A stretch of 64,000 bases of DNA from NCBI GenBank assembly GCA_964629685.1, contig CAZVTT010000001.1:641319-705318 (forward strand), in the 5' to 3' direction. A model generated the notes under the pieces. The model made no database searches. It was not told the origin of the DNA and saw nothing but the letters and a program-made list of their open reading frames with translations. Made by a program: the position numbers and the translations under genes. Below are positions 9,169 to 64,000 of the stretch, in pieces. Positions within the stretch are counted from its first letter, which is position 1. Each line of letters begins with the position of its first letter. The stretch is from an uncultured Gammaproteobacteria bacterium. Its GTDB lineage: Bacteria; Patescibacteriota; Microgenomatia; UBA10105; UBA927.

Positions 9169-11625
9169 TTAAATGCTTTTCTCCGGGTGGATTATTCCAT
9201 CCGGTGTGCGTTTCCCATATAGAGCGTCAAGCTCTTCCCCGGACAAGAGGTCATTTTCGGACTTGTTTAATACTTGTGCTGCCTGTTGAAGTAAATGCGC
9301 CCAGGATGATTTGTTTACATAGAGCATACCGTCGGCAGCCAGCGTTCCACCCTGGTTAATAAACCCAACGCCCCGAATCGTTTTACCGGAAAAATTATGC
9401 ATCATTGCCCCAATAAATAGTTCTGGCCTGGTATGTGTAACCATAATATAAGACTGTGTATCGTGATTAAAAATAGCATTTCTGGTTTCTTCCGGCGCGA
9501 GATGATGCGCTTCTCCTTCGTTTCTGGGTAAACGGAATCGACCCGGTTCCAGAATATATGCAACCCGGTGGGGAACGTCTTTTTCGGTTAATCGAACTGA
9601 AGCTTTCATAATCTCCATGAGTTGGTACGTACCCATGGCGATGAAACACAATTTGCTTTCAGACTGCTTATGGCCGAGCCAGGGAATTACCATTCCGCCA
9701 TTTGCTACGAGAGTCCGTGATTCATCCCGCGTAAACCAATGGGGAGTTATGCGCTTGGAAACGACAATAGTCCAAATTTGACCCTGTGTTTTAAATAGCT
9801 GCTCCATGACGGCTACCGAAACGTTATAGTCGGCCGGGAAAAACACCCGGGATATATCCGAAGTTTCGGCAAACATAGACTCCGCCATCGAAGAATCCTG
9901 ATGAGACAGTTCGTTCTTGCCGTTTTCCCAGCTGTGCGAAGTGAGTACTAGCGGGACCGATAACCATTTAGCAGGGCGGCCTTTTTCGGATTTGTGTTTG
10001 GAAAAAATAACTTCCTGTCGGGCTTCTCCGAATATTTTTGATCCGAATGCTTCATACGTCACAATAATATTTATTCCGCCTTTATTGCCGAACGCGGCAC
10101 CGGCAATAGCTTCTTCATTTAGTGCCGTTATTACTTTTCCGAAAACTGATTCGGATATCCCGCCTTCAGGATGAGTGACTCGGAATTTTAGTTCCTGCAG
10201 CGTTTCCGTCATCCTGTTGGATGTCATTTCATCTGGGTTTCCTACCCGTGGTCGAAGCTGCGGATTTGCTAATACGGTAGCTATATAGCTTCTATCTATT
10301 CCTTTTATCGGCGCAATATATTGTTCCTTAGGCTGGTGTAAACGGTCTTCGGATATCTCCAGATACTGTAATGCCGGTTCGTGTTCGATATGGACGTCAC
10401 GATTAGCGACCGGATTATCCCGTTCCCGTTGCCGTTTAGTATGCTCATGGTTATTTATGGTAGCGATAGCTTTCCGTAAATCCGCTTCCGGTACATATAA
10501 TTTTTTAGCATGCGTATTAAATCTATTGGCGGCAATATGATCCTGACTTGGATTCGTTACCAAAGGCAGATTGTGTGCAAAATTTGTGCCTTCATTATAA
10601 AAACCCGCACCTTTCGGGGCGACTGCTATACCGTACGGAATGGGCAGTTCGTATTTGTCTATGCTGTCTATTTCTTTGGCTTCATGTTTTAGCCGGCGTT
10701 CACTTTCAAATATTGCCCAGGCAAATGCTGCAGGGTCCCGTCCGTCAAAAACAAACGGATCAAAATTATGTAATTTAAGATAATTCACGAACCATTCCAC
10801 TCCACCTGACATAGACATCGTACTCCGTTGATCTATTCTTCTACCGTTTGCGATCATGATCGGTGTAATAAGTCCGCTATCTTCTTCTCTCCACCAACGC
10901 GGAGTCCAGTCGCTTCCGCGTTGTTCTTCAAATGCGCCATCACTTAAAAACGCTACGAGTCTCTCTCCCGGGAGCGGCATATGTGCATACTGTACTTCCG
11001 TAAATCCCAAGTAGCCGCTCTCCATGTGGCCGCCTGCTGTATTAGGGTTTACATGGCTTCCCAAAGGGGTATCCTGTTTTCCCTGCGCATTTAATATGCA
11101 GGAATAGAAGTCGCGGACATAACGGGTTAATCCTTCATCGGATAATGAATACCGTTCTTTATGGGCATCCGTCATGTTATCTAATAATAAGTTTACGCTA
11201 TCAATCGCAGCTACGGCATGTCCCTGACCGATAACCCATGCTCGGGTTTTTCCCATTATGGCATTCATTACCATATAGCCGACATAGCCGGGTATCATGT
11301 TTAGTGAAGCTCCCGTGTGGCCTTCAGGTTCTCGTTTAAAATCATCCGCAACAAGTACCCGACCGTCCAAATATACTTTTCGGGTATAGGTCATGTGTGC
11401 CACTAACCACATTCCGGCATTGGCTAATCTGTCGGCTGCGTGTAACAACGCGTAAGGATCTACATCAGGAGCCAAAAGGGAATTTTCCTTTAGATAAGGA
11501 ACCATTTCCTGAATCCGTGCTATTGTTTCCGGTTGGTGCTGAATGACACCGTATCCTTCTTTCCAGGAAATTTCAGAGGCAGTATCCATAGTATCTACTA
11601 TACTTTGCGTAGCGGGGAATAACAA
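9169..11625 (-). CDS. xfp: Xylulose-5-phosphate/fructose-6-phosphate phosphoketolase
   Basis: An 818-aa ORF. Its length and overall similarity match XFP-family phosphoketolases, which are thiamine-diphosphate-dependent. It lies directly downstream of ackA on the same strand. Confidence 0.85.
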   Translation of the reverse strand: MLFPATQSIVDTMDTASEISWKEGYGVIQHQPETIARIQEMVPYLKENSLLAPDVDPYALLHAADRLANAGMWLVAHMTYTRKVYLDGRVLVADDFKREPEGHTGASLNMIPGYVGYMVMNAIMGKTRAWVIGQGHAVAAIDSVNLLLDNMTDAHKERYSLSDEGLTRYVRDFYSCILNAQGKQDTPLGSHVNPNTAGGHMESGYLGFTEVQYAHMPLPGERLVAFLSDGAFEEQRGSDWTPRWWREEDSGLITPIMIANGRRIDQRSTMSMSGGVEWFVNYLKLHNFDPFVFDGRDPAAFAWAIFESERRLKHEAKEIDSIDKYELPIPYGIAVAPKGAGFYNEGTNFAHNLPLVTNPSQDHIAANRFNTHAKKLYVPEADLRKAIATINNHEHTKRQRERDNPVANRDVHIEHEPALQYLEISEDRLHQPKEQYIAPIKGIDRSYIATVLANPQLRPRVGNPDEMTSNRMTETLQELKFRVTHPEGGISESVFGKVITALNEEAIAGAAFGNKGGINIIVTYEAFGSKIFGEARQEVIFSKHKSEKGRPAKWLSVPLVLTSHSWENGKNELSHQDSSMAESMFAETSDISRVFFPADYNVSVAVMEQLFKTQGQIWTIVVSKRITPHWFTRDESRTLVANGGMVIPWLGHKQSESKLCFIAMGTYQLMEIMKASVRLTEKDVPHRVAYILEPGRFRLPRNEGEAHHLAPEETRNAIFNHDTQSYIMVTHTRPELFIGAMMHNFSGKTIRGVGFINQGGTLAADGMLYVNKSSWAHLLQQAAQVLNKSENDLLSGEELDALYGKRTPDGIIHPEKSI

Positions 11626-11651
11626 GATAAAAGGAAGAGTTAATAGGTGAT

Positions 11652-12869
11652 CTACCCTAAGTTAAGGTAATCACGGACGTATCTGAGAATGAGTTTTGAT
11701 TCGTCTACAGGTATAACCCACGCGTCTATGACGGAATCTGATTTGGTGATTTTTGCCGTTTTGCTCGTAGTTGCATTATTTAACCCGCGGTCCAGGTTTA
11801 TGCCGATATGGTTAAGTCCTTCCAACACTCTTTCCCGAATAAATGGGGCATGTTCTCCAATTCCGCCACCGAAAACTATGCCTTTGGGCTTTCGCAGGAC
11901 TGCTAAGTATGAACCGATATATTTAACTATGCGGTAAACAAACATGTCTATGGCCAGTCGGGCGACAGAATCTTTGTGATATGCGGCAATTAATGTTTTA
12001 GTATCACCATCTGTTCCGCTGACACCCGCGAGTCCCGACTCGGTATTTAATATTTTTTCCAGCTGCGGTACGGACATACCACTCGATCGGGCAATATGAA
12101 AAATAACACCGGGATCCATATCGCCGGCGCGGGTCCGCATCATGAGTCCTTCCATGGGAGTAAAACCCATGGACGTATCTATGGACACCCCATCCTGAAT
12201 TGCGCATACGGAAGCCCCGCTACCCAACTGGAGCGTGATGATACTACTTAGGTTTCTGGGCGTTCTGGTAAGTTCCGCAAAACGTTCCAGCATATATTCG
12301 TGTGCTAAGCCATGAAAACCAAATCGTGTAATACCGAATGTCTGGGACATCTGTCGCGGAATGGCATACGTTGATGCATAGAGGGGTATTGTCCGGTGAA
12401 AATTAGTATCGAATACACCAATACAGGGAATTGTGTTACCTGTGTGTTTTTTTATTGTCCGAATGACCTTGATTGCCGGTTTATTATGTAAGTGCGCTAA
12501 TGCTGCGAGTCGTTCTAGGCTTACTAACGTATCTTCTGTAATGGTAGTTGGTTTGGTTATTTTTTTCCCGCCGTGTACTATCCTGATTCCAAACGCGTTT
12601 ACCCATTTTTCAAATGGTAGATGTGGATTCAGAAGCGCTATATATTCCAGTGCGGAAATGACTGCTGTTTCTAAATTAGATATATCCTGTTTGACGGTAT
12701 CAACATTTATAGTTTGGGAAGAGAAGATGAAGCGGGGATTTAGTCCTATATGGTCAATACTACCTGTTGCTATTTTTTTGCCACGGTTAATTGAGACGTC
12801 ATACACATCAAATTTTAATGTGGAGCTTCCACTGTTAAACGTGACAATATGACCGGGCAGGGTATCCAT
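11652..12869 (-). CDS. ackA: Acetate kinase
   Basis: The N-terminus IVTFNSGSSTLKF matches the acetate/propionate kinase phosphate-1 motif. At 405 aa it is co-directional with xfp. Confidence 0.85.
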   Translation of the reverse strand: MDTLPGHIVTFNSGSSTLKFDVYDVSINRGKKIATGSIDHIGLNPRFIFSSQTINVDTVKQDISNLETAVISALEYIALLNPHLPFEKWVNAFGIRIVHGGKKITKPTTITEDTLVSLERLAALAHLHNKPAIKVIRTIKKHTGNTIPCIGVFDTNFHRTIPLYASTYAIPRQMSQTFGITRFGFHGLAHEYMLERFAELTRTPRNLSSIITLQLGSGASVCAIQDGVSIDTSMGFTPMEGLMMRTRAGDMDPGVIFHIARSSGMSVPQLEKILNTESGLAGVSGTDGDTKTLIAAYHKDSVARLAIDMFVYRIVKYIGSYLAVLRKPKGIVFGGGIGEHAPFIRERVLEGLNHIGINLDRGLNNATTSKTAKITKSDSVIDAWVIPVDESKLILRYVRDYLNLG

Positions 12870-50044: not shown

Positions 50045-50266
50045 ATGTTGATCCCCGCTCTTCCGCTCTTAGCATCCGAACTCCGTGAGCAACTTTCGTT
50101 GTTAACCACCCTTCTCCTTATTATTATGCTTATCACTATCGAATTGTTCGGTACGGATAAGGACGGCAAACGGACGCAGGTAACACTGGTGTTATTTCCC
50201 GTTGCGGGAATTTTGCTGGTACTGGTTGCCTACAATATTGCCATGCGGTTCGGTATTGCACTATGA
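50045..50266 (+). CDS. Small hypothetical membrane protein
   Basis: A 73-aa ORF with two hydrophobic helices. It overlaps the CPBP gene start by 4 nt. Confidence 0.3.
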   Translation: MLIPALPLLASELREQLSLLTTLLLIIMLITIELFGTDKDGKRTQVTLVLFPVAGILLVLVAYNIAMRFGIAL

Positions 50267-51006
50267 CCGGAGTTAAACCATTTTTAGTTCATTTTTTTAT
50301 ATTGTTGGCATTAAGCGCGGTTCAGTTTACCTTCCGTTGGTACCTTCCGGCTTCATTTTACGTTAATGCGTTTGTCTTATTGGTTTTTATCCTGGGTACG
50401 GTGGCGCTGCCGAAGTATCGGGGACTATTGGCTGCGTCAGCCATACTTCCGCTTTCGCATATGGCTGTACTTATGTTGGATTCGGATGCGACGTTTCCCC
50501 GTACGGTTGCCATGTATGGCGTATTTTTAACACTCGGTTTAGCGTATACCCGTGAGCATGCGCTCGTGATGCAGCATGTACTGCATATACCAAAACTTAT
50601 CAGGCTGATCGGTTCCTGCATGGTAGGCTTCGGATTAGGGCTGCTATTGTTTGAAGCGTCGCGGACGTTACCCGGATTGGAAGGGATACTACCGGACACT
50701 TCATATTTATCTTTGGTATCACTGCCGTTTTTCGTGATGGCGGAAGAACTCGTATTCCGAAGATTGCTGCAGAATGAATCGGAAAAAGTAATCTCCCCGT
50801 ATCTATCCATTGTTTTTGCGACGTTGGTATATTCCCTTTACTTTCTGACTATCAGCCCGCTGGCTATGTTCGTGTCGTATTGTTTTAGCTTAGCGGCGGG
50901 TCACATTTATCTGAAATATAAGCGAATTTCGCTTACGATGCTTTTTAATTTATGTTTTAAACTGGGGTTAATTGTCGGTGCAGTAATGCTTTCGGTTATA
51001 CATTAG
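50263..51006 (+). CDS. CPBP family intramembrane glutamic endopeptidase (CAAX protease/Abi-like)
   Basis: A multi-TM protein carrying the EExxxR motif (AEELVFRRLLQ). Confidence 0.65.
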   Translation: MTGVKPFLVHFFILLALSAVQFTFRWYLPASFYVNAFVLLVFILGTVALPKYRGLLAASAILPLSHMAVLMLDSDATFPRTVAMYGVFLTLGLAYTREHALVMQHVLHIPKLIRLIGSCMVGFGLGLLLFEASRTLPGLEGILPDTSYLSLVSLPFFVMAEELVFRRLLQNESEKVISPYLSIVFATLVYSLYFLTISPLAMFVSYCFSLAAGHIYLKYKRISLTMLFNLCFKLGLIVGAVMLSVIH

Positions 51007-54317: not shown

Positions 54318-55094
54318 ATGAAAGTTGTAATTCTTGCAGGTGGCTATGGGACTAGGTTAAGTGAAGAAACCAGTATCCGTCCGAAACCAATGGCGGAAGT
54401 CGGTGGTAAGCCGATTCTCTGGCACATAATGAAAATATTTTCTGCGCAGGGCTATAACGATTTTGTGATCTGCTGCGGATACAAATCACATGTCATTAAA
54501 GAATATTTTGCCAATTACGGTCTGCATCGGGCGGACGTAACATTCGATTTAGGAAATCATACCCATACCATCCATAAAAATGGTGCCGAAAAATGGAAAG
54601 TAACCTGTGTAGAGACCGGTGAAGATTCCATGACCGGCGGCAGGTTAAAACGGGTCAGCGAGTATTTGGACAACGAGCCGTTCTTTTTTACCTACGGTGA
54701 CGGTGTCAGTAACGTAAATTTAACCGAACTGGTTACATTTCATAAATCACAAAAAGCGTTTGCCACCATGACTGCAGTACAACCTCCCGGCCGTTTCGGC
54801 GCGTTTACCTTAAGTGAAGATCAGGCGAAAGTAACCAGTTTCAGGGAAAAACCTCAAGGCGACGGTGCCTGGATAAATGGTGGTTTTTTCGTATTGGAAC
54901 CGCAGGCACTGAAATATATCGAAAATGATACGACTACCTGGGAGCAGGAACCGCTTAAAAAGTTAGCCCATGACGGAAAACTGGCAGCTTACAAACATAC
55001 CGGTTTCTGGCATGCCATGGATACACTCCGCGATAAACACGTATTGGAAGAAATGTGGAAAAAGGGCGAGGCACCCTGGAAGTTGTGGGAGTAA
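54318..55094 (+). CDS. rfbF: Glucose-1-phosphate cytidylyltransferase
   Basis: The N-terminus [38 protein letters not shown] is the RfbF/DdhA signature. The protein is 258 aa. Confidence 0.85.
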
Positions 55095-55096
55095 TT

Positions 55097-56128
55097 ATGA
55101 ATATACTTATCGCCGGCAGTGACGGTTATATCGGTACCCGCATGGGACCGTTCTTAATGTCCCGGGGACACACAGTAACCGGACTTGATACCGGATTTTA
55201 TCGGAATGGTTGGTTATACAACGATCCTACAAATCCACTTCCCAAGGTAATTACCAAAGACACCCGTCATATAACGGTCGAAGAGTTAAAAGGTTATGAT
55301 GTCGTTATTCATTTAGCAGATCTATCCAACGATCCATTGGCGTTAATAGATGAACAGAACACATACAGAATTAACCACATCGGTTCCTTAGAGTTGGCCA
55401 AGAAAGCCAAACAGGCCGGTGTATCAAGGTTTTTGTATTCTTCCTCCTGCAGTATTTATGGTGTTGCCACGGAAGAATTCGTTAACGAACAATCGGAAGT
55501 CCGACCGCAAACAGCGTATGCCAAATGCAAATTATTAGTAGAAAAAGCGGTGGCAGAACTTGCCGATGATACCTTTACACCTACCTATTTGCGGAATTCT
55601 ACCGTGTACGGTCCGTCACCCCGGATGCGGTTCGATTTGGTGCTCAATAACTTAAGCGCATTAGCCTATACCACCCATGAGATTAAAATGACTTCCGACG
55701 GAACGCCCTGGAGACCGCTGGTGCATGTAATGGATTTATGTGAAGCGTTTGCCCGGGTAATAGAAGCACCGAAAGAAGTTGTTCATAATCAGGTATTTAA
55801 TGTGGGCAGTACCAAAAGCAATTACCAGGTGAAAGAAATTGCGACAGTGGTAGCCAATACCTTCCCCGGTTGTACATTGAGTTTCGGAAAGAGTGACGGC
55901 GACAACCGCAGTTATCGAGTTTCATTCGAAAAAATTGCCAAGGCATTTCCTGATTTTTCCTGCACCAGAACCATAGAAACGGGAGCAGCAGAGTTATTGG
56001 CATTATTCCAGAGAATTAATCTGACGCCGGAAGTATTTGCCGATCGCGCGTATACCAGGCTAAAACAGCTTTCGTATTTATCAGACACCAAACAAGTAGA
56101 CGCCGAGTTATTCTGGAGGGCAGCATGA
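55097..56128 (+). CDS. NAD-dependent epimerase/dehydratase family protein (candidate CDP-glucose 4,6-dehydratase)
   Basis: A Rossmann GxxGxxG region (GSDGYIG) and YAKCK (YxxxK) are present. It follows rfbF, and the next gene overlaps it by 4 nt. Confidence 0.7.
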   Translation: MNILIAGSDGYIGTRMGPFLMSRGHTVTGLDTGFYRNGWLYNDPTNPLPKVITKDTRHITVEELKGYDVVIHLADLSNDPLALIDEQNTYRINHIGSLELAKKAKQAGVSRFLYSSSCSIYGVATEEFVNEQSEVRPQTAYAKCKLLVEKAVAELADDTFTPTYLRNSTVYGPSPRMRFDLVLNNLSALAYTTHEIKMTSDGTPWRPLVHVMDLCEAFARVIEAPKEVVHNQVFNVGSTKSNYQVKEIATVVANTFPGCTLSFGKSDGDNRSYRVSFEKIAKAFPDFSCTRTIETGAAELLALFQRINLTPEVFADRAYTRLKQLSYLSDTKQVDAELFWRAA

Positions 56129-57372
56129 AAAAACAATCAACCGAAATTACCTGCAGGTTTTGTAAAACACCGCTGAAACATACGTTTGTAGATCTGGGAT
56201 TATCTCCCATAGCGAACGACTATATCCGTCCGGAACATAAAGACGTAAAAGAACCGTTTTTTCCGTTGCACGTATACGTTTGCAGCAAGTGTTATCTGGT
56301 ACAGTTGCCGGATACCAGAACGGAAGACGAAATTTTCCGTTCCGACTATGCCTATTTTTCTTCATTTTCCGCATCGTGGCTGGCACATTCCAAAGCGTAT
56401 GTGGATATGATTTCGGAAAAACTTAACCTGGGAAAAGCACATCAGGTTATAGAACTGGCCAGTAATGACGGATATTTACTGCAGTATTTCGTGGAAAAAC
56501 AGATTCCGGTATTAGGTATAGAGCCTTCGCTAAGTGTGGCTGAAGCCGCACGGGAAAAAGGAATTCCTACGGTAGTAAAGTTTTTCGGTGTAGATACAGC
56601 CAAAGAGTTGGTAAAAGAAGGCAAAAAAGCCGACTTGTTGCTCGGTAACAACGTATTGGCTCACGTTCCTGATTTAAATGATTTTGTGGCAGGAATGAAA
56701 ATAATCCTGAAAGAGGGCGGTACACTAACTATGGAGTTCCCGCACTTATTAAACCTCATGCAGTTAAATCAGTTTGATACCATTTACCATGAACATTTTT
56801 CATACTTTTCGTTTATGGCGGTGTCTAAAATATTTGCACATCACGGAATAACGCTCTACGACGTAGAAGAACTGCCGACTCACGGCGGATCTCTGCGGAT
56901 TTATGGACGCCATACCGGTAAAGATGTAACGCTTACCAAACGGGCATTGGCTATGATTGCCAAGGAAAAGAAAGCCAAACTGGATACGTTGGCTGCTTAT
57001 GCTAAATTCCAGAAACAGGTAGAAAAAACCCGGAAAGCTACAGTAGAATTTTTAACGAAAATACATAAATCGGGAAAAAACATTGTGGGTTACGGTGCTC
57101 CGGCAAAAGGGAATACACTGTTAAATTATTGCGGTATTACGTCCGATGTGGTGCACTATACCGTAGATAAAAATCCGCACAAGCAGAATCATTTTCTGCC
57201 GGGAGTACGGATTCCGGTATTTAACCCCGATAAAATTGTGGCGTCTAAACCTGATTACCTATTCATTCTTCCCTGGAACATAAAAGACGAAATTATGGAA
57301 GAAATGAAGTATATTAGATCATGGGGCGGTAAGTTTATTGTTGCTATACCGAAGCTCCAGGTCTATCCATGA
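56125..57372 (+). CDS. NDP-hexose C-methyltransferase (TylCIII-like class I SAM methyltransferase with an N-terminal Zn-ribbon)
   Basis: An N-terminal CxxC...CxxC region is present (CRFCKT...CSKCY). A SAM-binding region (ELASNDGYLLQYF) and a C-terminal C-methyltransferase-type domain follow. Confidence 0.65.
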   Translation: MKKQSTEITCRFCKTPLKHTFVDLGLSPIANDYIRPEHKDVKEPFFPLHVYVCSKCYLVQLPDTRTEDEIFRSDYAYFSSFSASWLAHSKAYVDMISEKLNLGKAHQVIELASNDGYLLQYFVEKQIPVLGIEPSLSVAEAAREKGIPTVVKFFGVDTAKELVKEGKKADLLLGNNVLAHVPDLNDFVAGMKIILKEGGTLTMEFPHLLNLMQLNQFDTIYHEHFSYFSFMAVSKIFAHHGITLYDVEELPTHGGSLRIYGRHTGKDVTLTKRALAMIAKEKKAKLDTLAAYAKFQKQVEKTRKATVEFLTKIHKSGKNIVGYGAPAKGNTLLNYCGITSDVVHYTVDKNPHKQNHFLPGVRIPVFNPDKIVASKPDYLFILPWNIKDEIMEEMKYIRSWGGKFIVAIPKLQVYP

Positions 57373-57899
57373 TTTTTACACCTACTGCACTTTCCGGTGC
57401 GTTTGTAATTGAACTTGAGAAACGTGAAGATGAGCGAGGGTATTTTGCCCGTTCATTCTGTGCCGATGAATTCTCCCGACACGGCCTTGAACCCAAAGTA
57501 GTGCAATGCAATATCTCATTTAACAAATCCCGCGGCACCCTCCGTGGTATGCATTTTCAGCAGGCCCCGTACGCGGAAGTGCGGTTAGTACGGTGTACCC
57601 GCGGAGCTGTACATGATGTGATCATTGATTTACGCCGCAATTCTCCGACCTTTAAACAATCTTTTGCTGTCGATCTTACTCCGGATAACGGCAAAATGTT
57701 GTATGTACCGCAGGGATTTGCGCACGGATTCTTAACACTGGCGGACAATACGGAAGTGTTTTACCAGATGAGTGAATTTTACCATCCGGAGTCTGCCGGA
57801 GGCGTACGTTATAACGATGCTGCATTTGGTATACAGTGGCCGGAAGAGGTAAAGGTAATTGCGGAGAAAGATACCGCGTACCCGGATTTTTCCGCTTGA
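57369..57899 (+). CDS. dTDP/CDP-4-dehydro-6-deoxyhexose 3,5-epimerase (RmlC-like cupin)
   Basis: The cupin core is typical of RmlC (ERGYFARSF, LRGMHFQ, YVPQGFAHGF). Confidence 0.8.
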   Translation: MIFTPTALSGAFVIELEKREDERGYFARSFCADEFSRHGLEPKVVQCNISFNKSRGTLRGMHFQQAPYAEVRLVRCTRGAVHDVIIDLRRNSPTFKQSFAVDLTPDNGKMLYVPQGFAHGFLTLADNTEVFYQMSEFYHPESAGGVRYNDAAFGIQWPEEVKVIAEKDTAYPDFSA

Positions 57900-57913
57900 T
57901 TCTTTCTGTATCT

Positions 57914-59212
57914 ATGACTGATATTGATCCACATACAGGCACACGGATGCATGCGCTTATTACTGCGCTTTATCCCATCTGTCGGTCCATAACCGGGAAC
58001 GGGGTCCGCAGCACGCTGGAAATACTTAAGCGCACTGTACCGCTGACGATAAACGAAGTTCCCAGCGGTACCAAAGTATTTGACTGGGAAGTGCCGCCGG
58101 AATGGAATATTACCGATGCCTACATAAAAAATGCTGCAGGGGAACGGGTGGTGGATTTTAACCGGTCCAATTTGCATGTCGTAAACTATAGTCGGCCGGT
58201 GCATAAACAAATGACGTGGGAAGAGCTTAAGCCGTTCGTACATTCTTTGGCGGATAGGCCCGACGCTATTCCCTACAGAACGACGTATTACGAAGACAAA
58301 TGGGGATTTTGTGTCCGGGATAGTGAATTATCTCAGTTTAAGTCCGGTGAAACGTATGACGTCTGTATAGATTCCACTTACGCGCCGGGAAATTTAACCT
58401 ACGGAGAATACGTGGTAAAAGGATCGCAAGACGCGGAAATACTTATTTCTACCCATATATGCCATCCATCAATGTGTAATGATAATTTATCGGGTATTGC
58501 CGTGGCATCAGAGTTGGCCAATTGGGTAGCGAGTATGCCGCGCAAATATTCCTACAGATTTTTATTTATTCCCGGTACCATTGGGTCACTTACCTGGCTG
58601 GCCACACACGAAGCGGATACGGAAAAAATTAAATTCGGGTTAGTGTTAACGGGTGTCGGAGATGCCGGTGCCGTAACATACAAAAAAACCAGGCAAGGGA
58701 ATACCGAAATTGATTACGTGATGGAACGGGTGTTAAAAGCCAGAAATACGGCATTTAAAATGGTGGATTTTTATCCGTACGGTTACGATGAGCGGCAATA
58801 TTCATCTCCCGGTATACACTTGCCCGTGGGAACGCTGATGCGTACGCAGCACGGTACGTATCCGGAGTACCATACGTCGAAGGATAATCTGTCGTTCGTG
58901 AAACCGGAGTCGCTTGCGGATTCTTTAGCGGTGCTTACCGCGGTACTGGAAACGGTGGAAACCGCAAAAACATATATAAACACCAGCCCTAAAGGGGAAC
59001 CCAATTTGGGGAAACGGGGACTGTATGCCGCCATGAATACGCAAACTGCAGATAAGGTATCGTTTCAGATGGCCATGTTATGGGTGTTAAATTTGTCTGA
59101 CGGCACGAATAGCCTTACTGCTATTGCTACCAGATCGGGAATGGATATGGATATCATTTCGTCTGCAGCCAATGTTTTACACGAGCATGAGTTACTAAAG
59201 GAAGTACTATGA
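57914..59212 (+). CDS. Aminopeptidase-like (M28/DUF4910-like) domain protein of sugar-modification clusters
   Basis: A 433-aa ORF with a metallopeptidase-like segment (CHPSMCNDNLSG). The family assignment is by recollection of this glycan-locus-associated architecture. Confidence 0.35.
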   Translation: MTDIDPHTGTRMHALITALYPICRSITGNGVRSTLEILKRTVPLTINEVPSGTKVFDWEVPPEWNITDAYIKNAAGERVVDFNRSNLHVVNYSRPVHKQMTWEELKPFVHSLADRPDAIPYRTTYYEDKWGFCVRDSELSQFKSGETYDVCIDSTYAPGNLTYGEYVVKGSQDAEILISTHICHPSMCNDNLSGIAVASELANWVASMPRKYSYRFLFIPGTIGSLTWLATHEADTEKIKFGLVLTGVGDAGAVTYKKTRQGNTEIDYVMERVLKARNTAFKMVDFYPYGYDERQYSSPGIHLPVGTLMRTQHGTYPEYHTSKDNLSFVKPESLADSLAVLTAVLETVETAKTYINTSPKGEPNLGKRGLYAAMNTQTADKVSFQMAMLWVLNLSDGTNSLTAIATRSGMDMDIISSAANVLHEHELLKEVL

Positions 59213-59919
59213 AAAATTTACATGGTAAAGTCGCGCTCGTAACCGGAGCTACCAGCGGGATTGGGGAAGCCATTGCCCGGGCGTTTTGTGCGGCAGGTGC
59301 AACGGTACTGCTGGTTGGGCGAAATCAATCGAAATTAAAACAGATGGAGCAGGATTTAGGTCCGTCTGCACACGGATTAATGGTAGATTTATCGGAAGCC
59401 AAGCAGCTTACTAACATGGCAGATACCGTAAGTAAACAGTTTCCGACCATGGATTTGCTGGTGCACGCAGCCGGCATTTTTGCTGTAGGGGAACATTTAA
59501 ATCCTGAACAGGTAGATTTTATTTTTGAAGTAAATTATGCCACTCCGGTAAATTTAACTACGGCATTATTACCCAAATTACGTGCGTCGCGGGGAGAAGT
59601 AGTGTTTATAAATTCCAGTGCGGCACGGGATACGGAATCCAAAGATCCGTATGTGCAAAGCAAAGTGAAACTAAAAGAGTATGCCGATACGCTGCGGCGT
59701 GCCGAAAACGAGCAGGGAATCCGGGTGTTATCCGTCTATCCCGGACGAACGGCTACTCCCATGCAGGAACAAATTTTCAGAAGTGAAGGCAAAACATATT
59801 TGGCCGAACATTTGTTACAACCCTCAGATATAGCCGAAACGGTACTGTCTGCGGTTCTGTTACCGCGGACGGCAGAAATTACCGACATCCACATCCGTCC
59901 GTTTAAAAAGTCCGCATAG
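59209..59919 (+). CDS. SDR family oxidoreductase (candidate NDP-4-ketohexose reductase)
   Basis: TGATSGIGEAIA (the TGxxxGxG motif), NSSA...YxxxK (YVQSK) are present. Confidence 0.8.
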   Translation: MKNLHGKVALVTGATSGIGEAIARAFCAAGATVLLVGRNQSKLKQMEQDLGPSAHGLMVDLSEAKQLTNMADTVSKQFPTMDLLVHAAGIFAVGEHLNPEQVDFIFEVNYATPVNLTTALLPKLRASRGEVVFINSSAARDTESKDPYVQSKVKLKEYADTLRRAENEQGIRVLSVYPGRTATPMQEQIFRSEGKTYLAEHLLQPSDIAETVLSAVLLPRTAEITDIHIRPFKKSA

Positions 59920-60023: not shown

Positions 60024-60052
60024 TTGACATGGTGGGAAATGTAATATACTAT
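60024..60052 (+). promoter_or_regulatory. Sigma70-type promoter for the PEF-CTERM protein gene
   Basis: A TTGACA -35 element, a 17-nt spacer and a TACTAT -10 element. A perfect aaggag SD sits 8 nt before ATG 60104. Confidence 0.45.
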
Positions 60053-60103
60053 ACCCATACCTGACCCCCGTAATAGCTTATAGTACCCTAAAAGGAGTAC
60101 CCA

Positions 60104-60733
60104 ATGAAAACAGTATCAGCCATTCTCGCAGTAACAGTAGCCACATTAGCATTTGCCGCACCAGCTTACGCCGCAGCTCCCGATGGGGCAGGTCCATGGG
60201 CAGATGAAGCAGTTTCCAGCGCACAGGGACTCCGCAAAGACGGTTCGCCCGTACTACCTATCCGCAGCAATCCATCGTCTGCCGTAGGAGTAGCGGAAAA
60301 CAATACCGTTCCGGGAAATTTTTATTCCCTGGGATTCGGCGGAAATATCGTATTGCGATTTGATAACCCAATTAGTAACGGAGTGGTAGTGGTAGAAGCT
60401 ACCAACTTGCCATATCCGACCGAAACGGCAACCGTAGAACTTTCCGCAGACGGATCTACCTGGCTTACCGCCGGATCAGTTTCTTCTGACGGAGAAGTGA
60501 AAATGCCGGAAAGACTAACCTGTGCACGTTTTGCCCGGGTAACGGATACCAGCAACCCGGCAGGTTTCCCGGAAGATGCAGACGGATATGATCTAGACGG
60601 TGTACGCGCAGCGGAAGGAATTCCCTGTGACACCCCGGACGTACCTGAATTCGGTACCATTACCGGTGCCATGGCAGCACTTATGTCCGGCGGAGTATTC
60701 CTCGGACTGAAGAAAAAACTAGGAATGGTTTAA
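60104..60733 (+). CDS. Secreted protein with a PEF-CTERM-like C-terminal sorting signal (putative exosortase/archaeosortase substrate)
   Basis: The signal peptide is MKTVSAILAVTVATLAFAAPAYA. The C-terminus is ...VPEFGTITGAMAALMSGGVFLGLKKKLGMV: a PEF tripeptide, a TM helix and a Lys cluster. Confidence 0.55.
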   Translation: MKTVSAILAVTVATLAFAAPAYAAAPDGAGPWADEAVSSAQGLRKDGSPVLPIRSNPSSAVGVAENNTVPGNFYSLGFGGNIVLRFDNPISNGVVVVEATNLPYPTETATVELSADGSTWLTAGSVSSDGEVKMPERLTCARFARVTDTSNPAGFPEDADGYDLDGVRAAEGIPCDTPDVPEFGTITGAMAALMSGGVFLGLKKKLGMV

Positions 60734-60760
60734 TACTTCCTACTTACATTTGAAACGACA

Positions 60761-60786
60761 GAGGCGGGCTAAACCCCGCCTCTTTT
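60761..60786 (+). terminator. Rho-independent terminator after the PEF-CTERM gene
   Basis: An 8-bp GC-rich stem gaggcggg / cccgcctc with the loop ctaaac, followed by TTTT. Confidence 0.6.
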
Positions 60787-60794
60787 GGTATAAT
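60786..60794 (+). promoter_or_regulatory. Extended -10 promoter element (TGgTATAAT) upstream of the exosortase-family gene
   Basis: TGGTATAAT immediately follows the terminator T-tract, 53 nt upstream of ATG 60847. Confidence 0.4.
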
Positions 60795-60846
60795 ACAGAT
60801 ATCCCGTTCTGACGATCTGATCCTGTAGTGTTATATTCGTCGTTTT

Positions 60847-61791
60847 ATGAAACAGATACAGAAATTACTCGAGAGTGATAGCAATAAATTCCTGCTGCGG
60901 TTGGGGATATTTGCCGCGCTATTTATTCTGGTAACCGGATTAGTGGGGCCGTGGGTGGTATACAGCAAGCTCCTGTATGGATTCCATTTTTTTATATACG
61001 GGAACATGGGGAAGCTGGTGTTATTCTCCGTAATCGTGTTTTTACTTCTTACTAGAGGAAAACTGCAGGACATTAAACTGGAAAAATATCAGAAGGTAAA
61101 TGTACTCTTTATCCTGGCATCGTTTGCATTAATACCGGTATTCTTCCGGCTGGGGAGTATATTGTTACAACAGTCATCGTTTACGGCCAATCTCCCGTTA
61201 AGCGTGCTAACCCATGTCACGTTACTCCTTATTACGATACTGCTGGTTCCCGGAGTATTCGGAATCAAATTCGTAAAGTATTTCCTGTCGGAGTTTAAAA
61301 AAGAAATAGGTGTATGCCTTGGATTATCTATCGGATTTTATTTCGCCATATTCAAAGTGTGGAATCTGTGGCCGTATTTAAGTGATATGGTGCTCGCAGC
61401 GGTAAAATGGTTGTTTTCACTTACATTTCCCATAGTGCGTACGGGCGTAAACAGACGCATCCTGGTACAGGATTTTGCCGTAACCATAGATCAGGCCTGT
61501 TCCGGAATAGAATCTATATTCTTATTTTCTTCACTGTATTTGTTAATTGCACTATTGGATTGGAAGAAGTTAAATAAAACCAAATTATTCCTGTTATTCT
61601 TCCCGGCTTTGGCGGGATTATTTTTGGTCAACATACTACGGGTATACATCTTAATTCTGATTGGAGTAGTAATTTCACCGCAGTTGGCATTACAACTCTT
61701 CCACACCTATGCCGGCCTGGTGCTATTTGTAGTTTATTTTTTCTTGTTTTGGAAAGTGTTCTATAAAAATTTAATAATTAGAAAAATTTGA
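60847..61791 (+). CDS. Exosortase/archaeosortase family transmembrane transpeptidase
   Basis: A 314-aa protein with about 7-8 TM helices. A conserved Cys motif is present (AVTIDQACSGIESIF). An Asn/Arg motif sits in a later helix (LVNILRVYIL). Both resemble exosortase-family hallmarks. Confidence 0.6.
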   Translation: MKQIQKLLESDSNKFLLRLGIFAALFILVTGLVGPWVVYSKLLYGFHFFIYGNMGKLVLFSVIVFLLLTRGKLQDIKLEKYQKVNVLFILASFALIPVFFRLGSILLQQSSFTANLPLSVLTHVTLLLITILLVPGVFGIKFVKYFLSEFKKEIGVCLGLSIGFYFAIFKVWNLWPYLSDMVLAAVKWLFSLTFPIVRTGVNRRILVQDFAVTIDQACSGIESIFLFSSLYLLIALLDWKKLNKTKLFLLFFPALAGLFLVNILRVYILILIGVVISPQLALQLFHTYAGLVLFVVYFFLFWKVFYKNLIIRKI

Positions 61792-61821
61792 TAATTGTGT
61801 ATATTGGAAAATGTTTCTAGT

Positions 61822-63087
61822 ATGAAGCTATCTAAGGTACTATCGTTTGGAAAGAAGCAAATTCTTTTATTTAAGAATGATGTTCTCTACAGAAATGCAT
61901 TGTGGTTAATGCTCGGTACAGTCGTAATGTCTGGAGTTGGTTTTGTCTTTTGGGTTATTGCTGCCAGGCTTTACAAACCTGAAACAATTGGCTTGTTCAT
62001 TACATATGTATCGTCGTTAATACTCTTGTCGAACTTTTCGTTGTTGGGATTTAATACAACTATTAATCGGTATTTATCTAATTCAAAAAATAAACAGAAT
62101 TTCATTAATACTACATTATTCGTATCGGCATCTGCGTCTTTTTTTATTGGATTAATATATGTATTAGGGATCAAAGTATGGGCAGATAAAATAAGTTTTG
62201 TTAAATCAGACATCTTATCTCTACTTATATTCCTTTCGTATGTCGCTATTAATACTATTAATTTAATTACGACTAATATTTTCATAGCAATGAGAGATGC
62301 AAAATTCGTATTTTTGCTGAATTCATCCCAGAGTATTGTTAAATTATTGCTGCTTATTTTATTATTTTCGCTCGGCCTTTATGGATTAATTGGTTCTTAC
62401 TACATTGCTACATTGGTAACTGTAATTATTGGATTTTTCGTTATCTACTCGAAATATAAAGTTAGAATACTATTCACTATAGATTCTGTGGTTATAAAGC
62501 AAGTGTTTAGATATTCGTTTATAAACTATGTTGTTAGTTTTGTTGGGGCGTTTCCTGAGTATATATTGCCAATCCTTGTAACAAGTAAAATTTCACCTGA
62601 AACAACTGCATTCTTTTATATGCCGAATATGATAGTAAGTTTTCTATCTGTGATACCTTCATCTGTTGCTAAATCATATTTTTCTGAAAGTTCACATGCA
62701 AATAAACCAGTTTCCTTGAAACGGCCTATGGCTCTAAGCTATTGTATTCTGGTTCCAATTGTCACAGTGTTTTTTTTGTTTGGTGAGTATATTCTTCGGA
62801 TTTTCGGAAAATCATACGCGCAGTCCGGATATATATATTTAGTTCTTATTCTTATCGGAGCTCTTGTATCCGTTCCTGGATACTTTTTGGGATTTAGACT
62901 TCTAGTAAAACATAGCATGCGAAAGTTAGCATTATTTACAGTAATCGGAGCATTGACTAACTTAATTCTTTACGTCTGGCTAGTAAATTATGGAATTGTA
63001 GGAATTGGTTTAGCTATAGTATTTGGTTATATTCAAGGTTCTACTCTGTATACTCTCGACTACTTGTTCAATAGCGATAGAGGATAA
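61822..63087 (+). CDS. Polysaccharide biosynthesis protein / Wzx-type flippase (MOP superfamily)
   Basis: A 12-TM protein with a Wzx-like N-terminus (MKLSKVLSFGKKQILLFKNDVLYRNALWLMLGTV). The region is AT-rich. Confidence 0.7.
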   Translation: MKLSKVLSFGKKQILLFKNDVLYRNALWLMLGTVVMSGVGFVFWVIAARLYKPETIGLFITYVSSLILLSNFSLLGFNTTINRYLSNSKNKQNFINTTLFVSASASFFIGLIYVLGIKVWADKISFVKSDILSLLIFLSYVAINTINLITTNIFIAMRDAKFVFLLNSSQSIVKLLLLILLFSLGLYGLIGSYYIATLVTVIIGFFVIYSKYKVRILFTIDSVVIKQVFRYSFINYVVSFVGAFPEYILPILVTSKISPETTAFFYMPNMIVSFLSVIPSSVAKSYFSESSHANKPVSLKRPMALSYCILVPIVTVFFLFGEYILRIFGKSYAQSGYIYLVLILIGALVSVPGYFLGFRLLVKHSMRKLALFTVIGALTNLILYVWLVNYGIVGIGLAIVFGYIQGSTLYTLDYLFNSDRG

Positions 63088-63092
63088 TCTTT

Positions 63093-64000
63093 ATGAAAGT
63101 CTGTATTATTAATGGTATATATGCTCAAACGAATGATGGAATAGGAAGATATTCCAAAAATCTAAAATTGAGTCTTCTTAGCGGTAAAAATGTTAATATT
63201 ATTGAAGTACCAAATCAGAAACAGGTAATCTTAAAAGCTGGTAAAGTTGTGGGAATAGGTAAATATATACCTAGCAACATAAAGCGTATTACTAACAATA
63301 TTCTCCTTGAAAAAAACTACCTCAATCGTTTTATTAATAATAGATATCACTTATGCGAACAAGTAAAAGAAATTCAGGCAGATATTTACCATGCTATTTC
63401 ACCTTCGGAAGCACCTGCTGCAGTACTTACAGGAAAAAAACCATTTGTAACCACGGTACACGATATAATTCCACTTATTAATCCTCCTAGGTTTTTACTA
63501 GAGAAGTTTTATTTTAACGAATATATGAAGATGGCATTAAAATCAAACATGATAATTTCAGATTCCAAGTCTACAAGAAATGATTTGATATCATTTTTAC
63601 CTGTAGATCAATCAAAAATCGCTATTGTATATCCAAGTATTGAAGAGACATACATCCCTTTGAAAGAAAAAAGGCCAAATAAATTTTTTACTTTTATATT
63701 TGTTGGCGGATTAACAAAACGAAAAGGAATATATGAAACGGTAAAAGCATTTAGAGAATTGTACAACATAAATCAGAATATACGGTTGCGAATTATAGGA
63801 GAGGGTGAAGAGGTTCATAATATCGTTAGACTTATTAATCGGATGGGAATAGAAAATAGTGTAAGTGTGGAAGGGTTTCTAAGCGAAAATGCGTTGATAA
63901 AGGCGTACCAAGAATCAGACGCACTTGTATATCCCTCAAAGTATGAAGGTTTCGGATATACACCATTGGAAGCAATGTCATGTGGATTACCAGTAATAAC
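63093..64000 (+). CDS. Glycosyltransferase family 1 (GT4-like), 5' part; continues beyond the window
   Basis: An agagga RBS is present. The frame is open to the window end. The C-terminal GT-B motif EGFGYTPLEAMSCGLPVI is present. Confidence 0.7.
   Translation, partial: MKVCIINGIYAQTNDGIGRYSKNLKLSLLSGKNVNIIEVPNQKQVILKAGKVVGIGKYIPSNIKRITNNILLEKNYLNRFINNRYHLCEQVKEIQADIYHAISPSEAPAAVLTGKKPFVTTVHDIIPLINPPRFLLEKFYFNEYMKMALKSNMIISDSKSTRNDLISFLPVDQSKIAIVYPSIEETYIPLKEKRPNKFFTFIFVGGLTKRKGIYETVKAFRELYNINQNIRLRIIGEGEEVHNIVRLINRMGIENSVSVEGFLSENALIKAYQESDALVYPSKYEGFGYTPLEAMSCGLPVI

Follow-up and report, generated by a model that had tools for sequence, protein, structure and literature searches.

The stretch of DNA analysed here, referred to as the window, comprises 64,000 nucleotides of contig CAZVTT010000001.1 (43.5% GC; no tRNA genes). 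Near its 3' end, two consecutive genes encode a secreted protein ending in a putative sorting tag, designated the substrate, and a polytopic membrane protein of the exosortase/archaeosortase family, designated the enzyme (Table 1). A gene for an intramembrane protease of the CPBP family and several genes for glycan synthesis lie on the same strand. An earlier note on this DNA had assigned the pair to the PEF-CTERM/ArtC class, of archaeal type, and had proposed an S-layer-like substrate, abundant and probably glycosylated. The results presented below make it likely that the two genes are a dedicated pair, an exosortase and the bearer of its sorting signal, from an unnamed subfamily that is widespread in the candidate phyla radiation (CPR), or Patescibacteria.

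At its N-terminus, the 209-residue substrate has a typical Sec signal peptide (MKTVSAILAVTVATLAFAAPAYA/AAP); its C-terminus reads ...DTPDVPEFGTITGAMAALMSGGVFLGLKKKLGMV (also given as ...GIPCDTPDVPEFGTITGAMAALMSGGVFLGLKKKLGMV). This C-terminus combines VPEFG, a transmembrane (TM) helix, and the basic cluster KKK followed by LGMV, in agreement with the earlier description of a secreted protein with a PEF tripeptide, from which only the trailing LGMV had been omitted. In the AlphaFold2 model of the substrate (predicted local distance difference test, pLDDT, of 89.6), the N-terminal domain (residues ~27 to 176) is a β-sandwich. All 34 Foldseek matches of this domain in the PDB (E ≤ 1e-3) were galactose-binding-like jelly rolls, the neighbours being discoidin/F5-8 type C, CBM32, and SUN-domain structures with E-values of about 1e-4 and TM-scores of only 0.3 to 0.55. 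The match to the Pfam model F5_F8_type_C_2 (PF22633) was weak and below threshold (14.5 bits versus 27.8). The predicted fold therefore points to a discoidin/CBM32-like domain, which probably binds glycans. The linker between the folded domain and VPEFG is just five residues long. A lone ~150-residue domain on so short a linker does not fit the S-layer-like protein proposed earlier. The Pfam and NCBIfam output contained no S-layer or SLH domains, and none of the analyses pointed to a lattice, to high abundance, or to glycosylation of the substrate.

The enzyme belongs to the exosortase/archaeosortase family, as initially proposed, since it passed both the TIGR04178 signature (51.9 bits, cut-off 23) and the Pfam model PF09721, Exosortase_EpsH (54.8 bits, threshold 25.7). 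The AlphaFold2 model was all-helical (pLDDT of 92.7). The enzyme contains the motifs DQACSG (Cys218, encoded by the codon at 61498-61500), VNILRVY (Asn262 and Arg265), and LFHTY (His286). These four residues were invariant in an alignment of 35 homologues, which are 32 to 58% identical to the window enzyme and all match TIGR04178. ArtA of Haloferax volcanii, the archaeosortase for PGF-CTERM proteins, belongs to the same TIGR04178 superfamily, relies on the same tripartite signal logic, and has conserved critical Cys and Arg residues, Cys173, Arg214, and Arg253 being required for activity (PMC9263693). By analogy, Cys218, Arg265, and His286 are candidate catalytic residues. When 1.84 billion cluster representatives were searched with the enzyme profile, 139 clusters matched at E ≤ 1e-30, which shows the clade to be sizeable; automated annotation names its members 'exosortase/archaeosortase family protein'. 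Four of the proteins retrieved (P0247, P0274, P0277, and P0281) are longer, with 733 to 802 residues, and have the CPR exosortase domain at one terminus, indicating fusion of the enzyme to another moiety.

Comparison with curated models did not provide a name for either protein. On the named models, the window enzyme scored 68.4 bits for XrtE/VPEID (cut-off 150), 52.9 for XrtV (313), 44.8 for 8TM_EpsH (105.6), and 35.5 for XrtA (208). A named Xrt or Art subfamily was rejected for the enzyme, as none of the cut-offs was reached. XrtE (TIGR04162) was the best named model for all 35 members of the clade (35 to 72 bits versus 150; best E-value 3.9e-20). For the window enzyme, the alignment was limited to positions 161-295 of the 516 positions of the profile, and the 314-residue protein is devoid of a fused protease domain. 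No archaeosortase model, ArtC included, matched the window enzyme at E ≤ 10. Ten of the 35 clade members matched ArtC (TIGR03762, cut-off 100) with scores of 32 to 43 bits (best E-value 6.8e-12).

For the tail, the PEF-CTERM model (TIGR03024) gave no match at E ≤ 10 with 31- and 40-residue versions of the window C-terminus, a threshold at which the filters of HMMER may still hide very weak matches. Identity of the tail as PEF-CTERM, PEP-CTERM, or VPEID-CTERM was rejected, there being no match at E ≤ 10 in NCBIfam scans of the isolated window tail. The searches suggested in the earlier note (TIGR04178 and its subfamilies for the enzyme; TIGR03024 against TIGR02595, the PEP-CTERM model, for the tail) thus assigned the enzyme to the superfamily and to no named subfamily, and neither tail model matched. 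None of ten related tails reached the cut-off of a curated sorting model or matched PEF-CTERM; one scored 15.0 on PEP-CTERM (cut-off 16), through its TM part only. The PEFG-CTERM model (TIGR04296) scored 11.9 bits on the window tail versus a cut-off of 25, with only profile positions 2-9 (eight residues) aligned and the TM part unaligned. On the LPXTG_anchor model (TIGR01167), the window tail scored 14.2 versus 15.9 via its TM and basic parts only, and it contains no LPXTG motif. Sortase substrates follow an analogous logic (signature, TM helix, basic tail), although the fold of sortases is unrelated to that of exosortases. A sortase gene is located 3 kb from one of the related loci (L053).

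These comparisons bear on the possibility that the pair is an archaeal-type PEF-CTERM/ArtC system, in which a bacterium acquired an ArtC-like enzyme acting on an abundant, glycosylated, S-layer-like substrate. A literal PEF(G) motif is common to the window tail and to the PEF-CTERM and PEFG-CTERM signals and has a TM helix and basic residues after it; VPEFG weakly fits the first eight positions of the PEFG-CTERM model; ArtC matches below the cut-off occur in the clade; and glycan genes surround the pair. However, the tail fails both the PEF-CTERM and the PEFG-CTERM models, ArtC is outscored in every clade member by the bacterial XrtE model or by the generic signature, and the substrate has a single small lectin-like domain. 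The best named matches of the enzyme are bacterial Xrt models, XrtE first, all far under their cut-offs, so that the label 'archaeal-type' is not retained. All the relatives retrieved are bacterial (CPR), except a 41-residue C-terminal fragment encoded at a contig edge (L051, positions 3-125) in a metagenome-assembled genome (MAG) of Methanobacterium sp. from SPRUCE peat, a fragment that is 49% identical to the CPR exosortase. A Microgenomates MAG (L016) bears the same SPRUCE label, so that mis-binning of the fragment seems likelier than an archaeal homologue. Overall, a PEF-CTERM/ArtC system of archaeal type is highly improbable.

Evidence for a dedicated pair is provided by the conservation of the tail beside the enzyme. 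Scanning genomes with the alignment of the 35 homologues, one genome per species, provided 49 loci. Open reading frames (ORFs) were considered to encode a tail if they scored at least 25 bits on a tail hidden Markov model (HMM). One to four tail ORFs were present within 690 nucleotides of the exosortase ORF in 44 of the 49 loci, and in 43 of these 44 the nearest one shared its strand. Among the five remaining loci, L003 is interrupted by a contig break, and its missing substrate gene ends another contig (L054) of the same MAG; L010 contains masked sequence; L051 is the 41-residue enzyme fragment; L019 has a tail ORF 7 kb from the enzyme gene; and L021 has none. The pairing of tail protein and enzyme proposed in the earlier note is therefore real and evolutionarily conserved.

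The 68 tail ORFs share the consensus [VI]PE[FY]Gx[IL][TG]GxxAAxx[SG]xGA[FY]Lxx[RK]3, in which the basic triplet is at a fixed distance of +22 from the signature Pro and the TM segment is rich in Ala and Gly. An HMM built from 63 tails, the window protein being excluded, scored 45.1 bits on the window substrate (E-value 4e-12). This score is comparable to those of the training family itself, and the substrate was the sole match in the 64-kb window. These results indicate that the window tail is a bona fide member of a clade-specific tail domain, beyond the mere succession of PEF and a helix. Two paralogues from the ~150-residue family described below, with a degenerate signature (VVPVFG in L033, 8225-8698, and GVPRAS in L039, 3308-3742), are encoded directly upstream of the exosortase gene and have kept the helix and RR; they may be non-cleavable variants.

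Homologues of both proteins were found in CPR/Patescibacteria (Woesebacteria, Levybacteria, Daviesbacteria, WWE3, and Saccharibacteria), the pairing of tail and enzyme spanning Microgenomates and Saccharibacteria. The genome of the window itself belongs to this group. CPR-type modules were also present under many MAG titles of 'uncultured Gammaproteobacteria' and in single records for Weeksellaceae, Verrucomicrobiia, Acidiferrales, and Sulfotelmatobacter (L004-L007, L009, L010, L012, L013, L017, L018, L020, L028, L032, and L047). The taxonomic labels of these records are probably wrong.

The tail is carried by proteins with unrelated N-terminal domains. Sixty-three of the 68 tail ORFs encode a single family of ~150-residue proteins, in which a domain of ~95 residues lies between the signal peptide and the tail. 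Six representatives compared to Pfam gave only CarboxypepD_reg or bacterial-Ig matches below threshold, and the family is possibly Ig-like. The other proteins with the tail include the discoidin-like substrate of the window, a 93-residue 'ISGNGAGSKN' protein (L041), and a mini-protein (L016). The latter, encoded at 9714-9920 next to an exosortase gene, has 68 residues, namely a signal peptide, the Pro-rich spacer KPTPPPKPPT, and a VPEFG tail; processing would leave a mature part of about 15 to 20 residues. In the 150-residue family, the last β-strand continues straight into the signature. This feature and the five-residue linker of the window substrate indicate that the mature proteins should sit at the membrane surface.

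Conversely, homologues of the N-terminal domain of the window substrate have exchanged the tail. Orthologues with the same tail were found (P0119-P0127, P0139, and P0143), and the genes of P0124 and P0139 are directly upstream of the exosortase gene in L052 and L053, the loci with a readable context. A frequent alternative among homologues of the domain is a C-terminus composed of ...GQVLGASTDTLAATG, a TM segment, and basic residues in place of the VPEFG tail. Judging from the motif, these LAATG tails look like a sortase signal of the LAxTG type; TIGR01167 gave no match on full-length LAATG-tailed homologues. LAxTG signals are of the type recognised by class E sortases. One such homologue, P0172 (L055, 437-1528), is encoded by the same 953,690-bp contig as the window. 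It is a 363-residue paralogue for the N-terminal domain, contains an fn3 domain, and ends in ...TDTLAATG, a TM segment, and R. The same genome therefore appears to use two C-terminal sorting systems for related domains. The discoidin-like family (P0128-P0237) has at least four C-terminal modules: the VPEFG tail, the LAATG tail, a Cys-rich module 'GCCC...ISGNGAGSKNTV', and a module 'GEPG...GNQQAH', which weakly matches post-COAP-1 (26 bits versus a cut-off of 40).

Haft has proposed in a preprint that C-terminal sorting signals and dedicated systems are recognised by the occurrence of the same tail on unrelated domains, by homologues that swap the signal, and by regular adjacency of tail and enzyme genes, conserved adjacency being accepted evidence for one-to-one sorting systems (10.1101/2023.06.07.544157). 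All three features are present here. These observations also bear on the possibility that the tail is a permanent, uncleaved anchor and that the EpsH-like protein serves only in polysaccharide export or assembly with the flippase and the glycosyltransferases. Genes for the latter proteins do recur beside the enzyme, the degenerate PVF and PRA paralogues retain the TM helix and the basic cluster, and cleavage in the clade is deduced from related systems. However, a permanent anchor leaves unexplained the conservation of [VI]PE[FY]G and of a helix of fixed length on unrelated N-terminal domains, the existence of a 68-residue protein with little beyond a signal peptide and the tag, the swap with a sortase-type tail, and the near-obligate adjacency of the genes. 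We therefore regard this explanation as quite unlikely.

Comparison with known systems suggests how a dedicated exosortase pair could function. The N-terminal signal peptide would direct the 209-residue protein to Sec for export, and the C-terminal TM helix and the KKK stop-transfer cluster would keep it in the cytoplasmic membrane for a time. The adjoining enzyme, with its eight TM segments, would recognise VPEFG at the outer edge of the helix, Cys218 together with Arg265 and His286 forming the candidate active site. Cleavage at or near VPEFG would remove the helix, and the new C-terminus would be transferred to an acceptor, by analogy with ArtA and sortases, leaving the discoidin/CBM32-like domain fixed close to the cell surface. 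ArtA offers a precedent, in which a surface protein encoded among glycosylation genes is cleaved and then anchored to a lipid (PMC6098224). The very short linker and the recurrence of Wzx-like flippase and glycosyltransferase genes favour a membrane lipid or a flipped lipid-linked glycan as the likeliest acceptor. The CPR system differs from ArtA by the lack of a match to the ArtA model, by the signature (PGF versus VPEFG), by the host (archaeal versus bacterial), and by the number of substrates, which are numerous for ArtA and include the S-layer glycoprotein, whereas one to four small adjacent substrates were found here. Similarly, PEP-CTERM systems typically combine one enzyme and many substrates in diderm hosts, in contrast to the dedicated adjacent pair of CPR. 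The absence of further proteins with the same tail in the genome, which the earlier note would have taken as a refutation, is unsuitable as such for dedicated one-to-one systems.

Several points weigh against this interpretation. The loci were gathered via the enzyme, and the systematic measurement was therefore that of the probability of finding a tail given an enzyme, rather than the converse. The tail ORFs were first chosen with a PE-containing pattern, so that this choice itself accounts for part of the invariance of Pro and Glu, and two paralogues have PVF or PRA instead of PEF. The DNA covered is the 64-kb window plus 7 kb of a genome of ~0.95 Mb, which may encode further substrates. The substrate gene has promoter-like and terminator-like sites of its own, and co-transcription with the enzyme gene is thus not evident. 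Since the tail is in no curated sorting model and the enzyme is under all named cut-offs, the assignment rests on the signature and on comparative genomics, and we infer cleavage and anchoring in this clade by analogy. Taking these points into account, the pair is best described as a putative new subfamily with a new cognate signal inside the known exosortase/archaeosortase superfamily.

The window also encodes a CPBP/Rce1-like intramembrane protease upstream from the pair. Of the 49 loci, 24 have a CPBP homologue upstream of the pair in the same orientation, as do all three loci retrieved with substrate homologues (L052-L054). The interval between the CPBP and substrate genes was ~0.4-0.8 kb in the latter close relatives versus ~9 kb in the window, where it contains a Dus gene on the minus strand, glycosyltransferase genes, and the CDP-sugar cassette. 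This ~9-kb segment looks like an insertion into the module. In the dedicated pair, the protease may act as a helper by clearing or trimming the released helix or by joining in processing.

A more prominent role of the protease was considered, in which it would cut the tail in the manner of a myxosortase, the exosortase-like protein being responsible for transfer or glycan handling. Besides the recurrence of the upstream gene, such a role would agree with the established function of CPBP proteases in sorting proteins with MYXO-CTERM and related signals, and in both systems such a protease is encoded beside proteins with tripartite tags. XrtE, the best named model, has the title 'exosortase E/protease' and 516 positions. 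The additional half of XrtE is a CPBP domain. The XrtE signature VPEID and VPEFG also start with the same residues (V-P-E). Both systems are thus linked to a protease, XrtE by the name and length of its model and the system described here, in CPR hosts, by a frequent neighbour gene. However, the CPBP protein of the window matched no NCBIfam model, the C-terminal half of XrtE included. The CPBP-processed signals described so far, such as MYXO-CTERM, carry an invariant Cys, and the CPR tail has no Cys. The exosortase is the more constant partner, as about 45% of the loci have no CPBP gene within 10 kb while the adjacency of tail and exosortase genes is found in ~90%, and it keeps the invariant Cys, Arg, and His residues. 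Cleavage of the tail by the CPBP protease is accordingly unlikely.

The glycan locus described in the earlier note is also present, with genes for an rfbF-type cytidylyltransferase, an RmlC-like epimerase, a C-methyltransferase, glycosyltransferases, and a flippase (Table 1). The glucose-1-phosphate cytidylyltransferase scored 423.5 bits on TIGR02623 (cut-off 300) and the epimerase scored 167 on TIGR01221 (cut-off 156); Methyltransf_14 and DUF4910 also matched in the cassette. No locus outside the genome of the window contained an rfbF homologue, indicating that the CDP-sugar cassette is specific to this genome. A Wzx-like flippase gene was present within 10 kb of the exosortase gene in 28 of the 49 loci, often directly downstream, and genes for family 4 glycosyltransferases (GT4) were present in 26. 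The recurrent link with polysaccharide genes is therefore a conserved trait of the clade, as in the bacterial PEP-CTERM/XrtA (EpsH) systems, in which the exosortase gene is likewise located in a polysaccharide locus with flippase and glycosyltransferase genes and the enzyme shares PF09721. An analogy with archaea is not needed to account for this association. The flippase and GT4 genes of the window (61795-64000) have a GC content of 32% (0.24 to 0.28 at third codon positions) versus ~44% upstream, and the break is exactly at the stop codon of the exosortase gene, which suggests that this glycan cassette is hypervariable or was acquired recently.

Table 1. Features of the substrate and enzyme genes and of neighbouring genes in the window.
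Feature	Position	Strand	Description
CPBP/Rce1-like intramembrane protease gene	50263-51006	+	247 aa; PF02517 34.7 bits versus gathering threshold of 22.4
CDP-sugar modification cassette	54318-59919	+	Glucose-1-phosphate cytidylyltransferase, short-chain dehydrogenase/reductase (SDR) epimerase/dehydratase, C-methyltransferase, RmlC-like epimerase, DUF4910/M28-like, SDR
Sigma-70-like promoter match TTGACA-17-TACTAT	60024-60052	+	10/12 positions; consensus match only
Shine-Dalgarno sequence AAGGAG	60092-60097	+	6 nt 5' of the substrate ATG; read directly
Substrate gene	60104-60733	+	209 aa; signal peptide residues 1-23, β-sandwich ~27-176, C-terminal sorting tag
Sorting domain	60641-60730	+	VPEFG at 60641-60655, TM helix TITGAMAALMSGGVFLGL, then KKK and LGMV
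Terminator-like hairpin and T-run	60760-60783	+	9-bp stem, 7 GC pairs; between substrate and enzyme genes
Weaker promoter-like match CTGACG-17-TATATT, extended TG	60809-60837	+	9/12 positions; consensus only; 5' of the exosortase gene
Exosortase-family gene	60847-61791	+	314 aa, ~8 TM segments; TIGR04178, PF09721
Wzx-like flippase gene (Polysacc_synt)	61795-63087	+	PF01943 61 bits
GT4 glycosyltransferase gene	63093-64000	+	Runs off the window end

The promoter, Shine-Dalgarno sequence, and terminator reported in the earlier note for the substrate gene are present. In the entire stretch, promoter-like matches (6 versus 5.2 expected from shuffled sequence) and terminator-like matches (5 versus 2.7 expected) were not enriched. 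These matches were therefore not taken as evidence of high expression or abundance of the substrate, and the earlier argument based on strong signals was left unused.

NCBIfam release 20.0 lacks a model specific to the enzyme or to the tail, and a full-text literature search, of incomplete coverage, returned no paper connecting exosortases with CPR, Patescibacteria, Saccharibacteria, or TM7. Exosortases are biochemically poorly understood, and their usual setting is diderm bacteria with many PEP-CTERM substrates. The system described here is a compact version, with one enzyme for one or few substrates, that recurs in two large CPR lineages. The sorting principle was already known, and the surprise of an archaeal signal in a bacterium does not hold. 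For annotation, the pair offers a definable new enzyme subfamily and a new C-terminal sorting domain. For experimental work, it offers a minimal system for asking to what an exosortase attaches its substrate; Saccharibacteria are culturable and some of them are genetically tractable. For the biology of CPR, it points to a group of small β-sandwich proteins, putatively displayed at the surface, which may participate in cell-cell contact. A speculative and rather doubtful extension is that the entire module (CPBP protease, tagged β-sandwich protein or proteins, exosortase, flippase, and glycosyltransferases) builds an undescribed surface structure, in which the exosortase covalently joins the protein to a flipped lipid-linked glycan or another envelope polymer. 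If so, ultra-small host-attached bacteria would display a protein-glycolipid conjugate on the surface of their membrane, which could mediate attachment to host cells, the protein part being lectin-like here and maybe Ig-like in most other lineages.

Two other regions of the window are of note. At its 5' end, on the plus strand, an ORF for a 459-residue RHS-repeat protein (445-1824) is followed by a gene for a giant 2159-residue protein of the Tc-toxin/RHS type (2156-8635), which contains SpvB, TcdB_toxin_midN, FG-GAP, RHS-repeat, and PA14 domains and two C-terminal F5/8 type C domains. This protein is an unusual cargo for a CPR genome of ~1 Mb, and discoidin domains are therefore found there too. 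On the minus strand, genes for a phosphoketolase (XFP) and an acetate kinase are located side by side (9169-12869).

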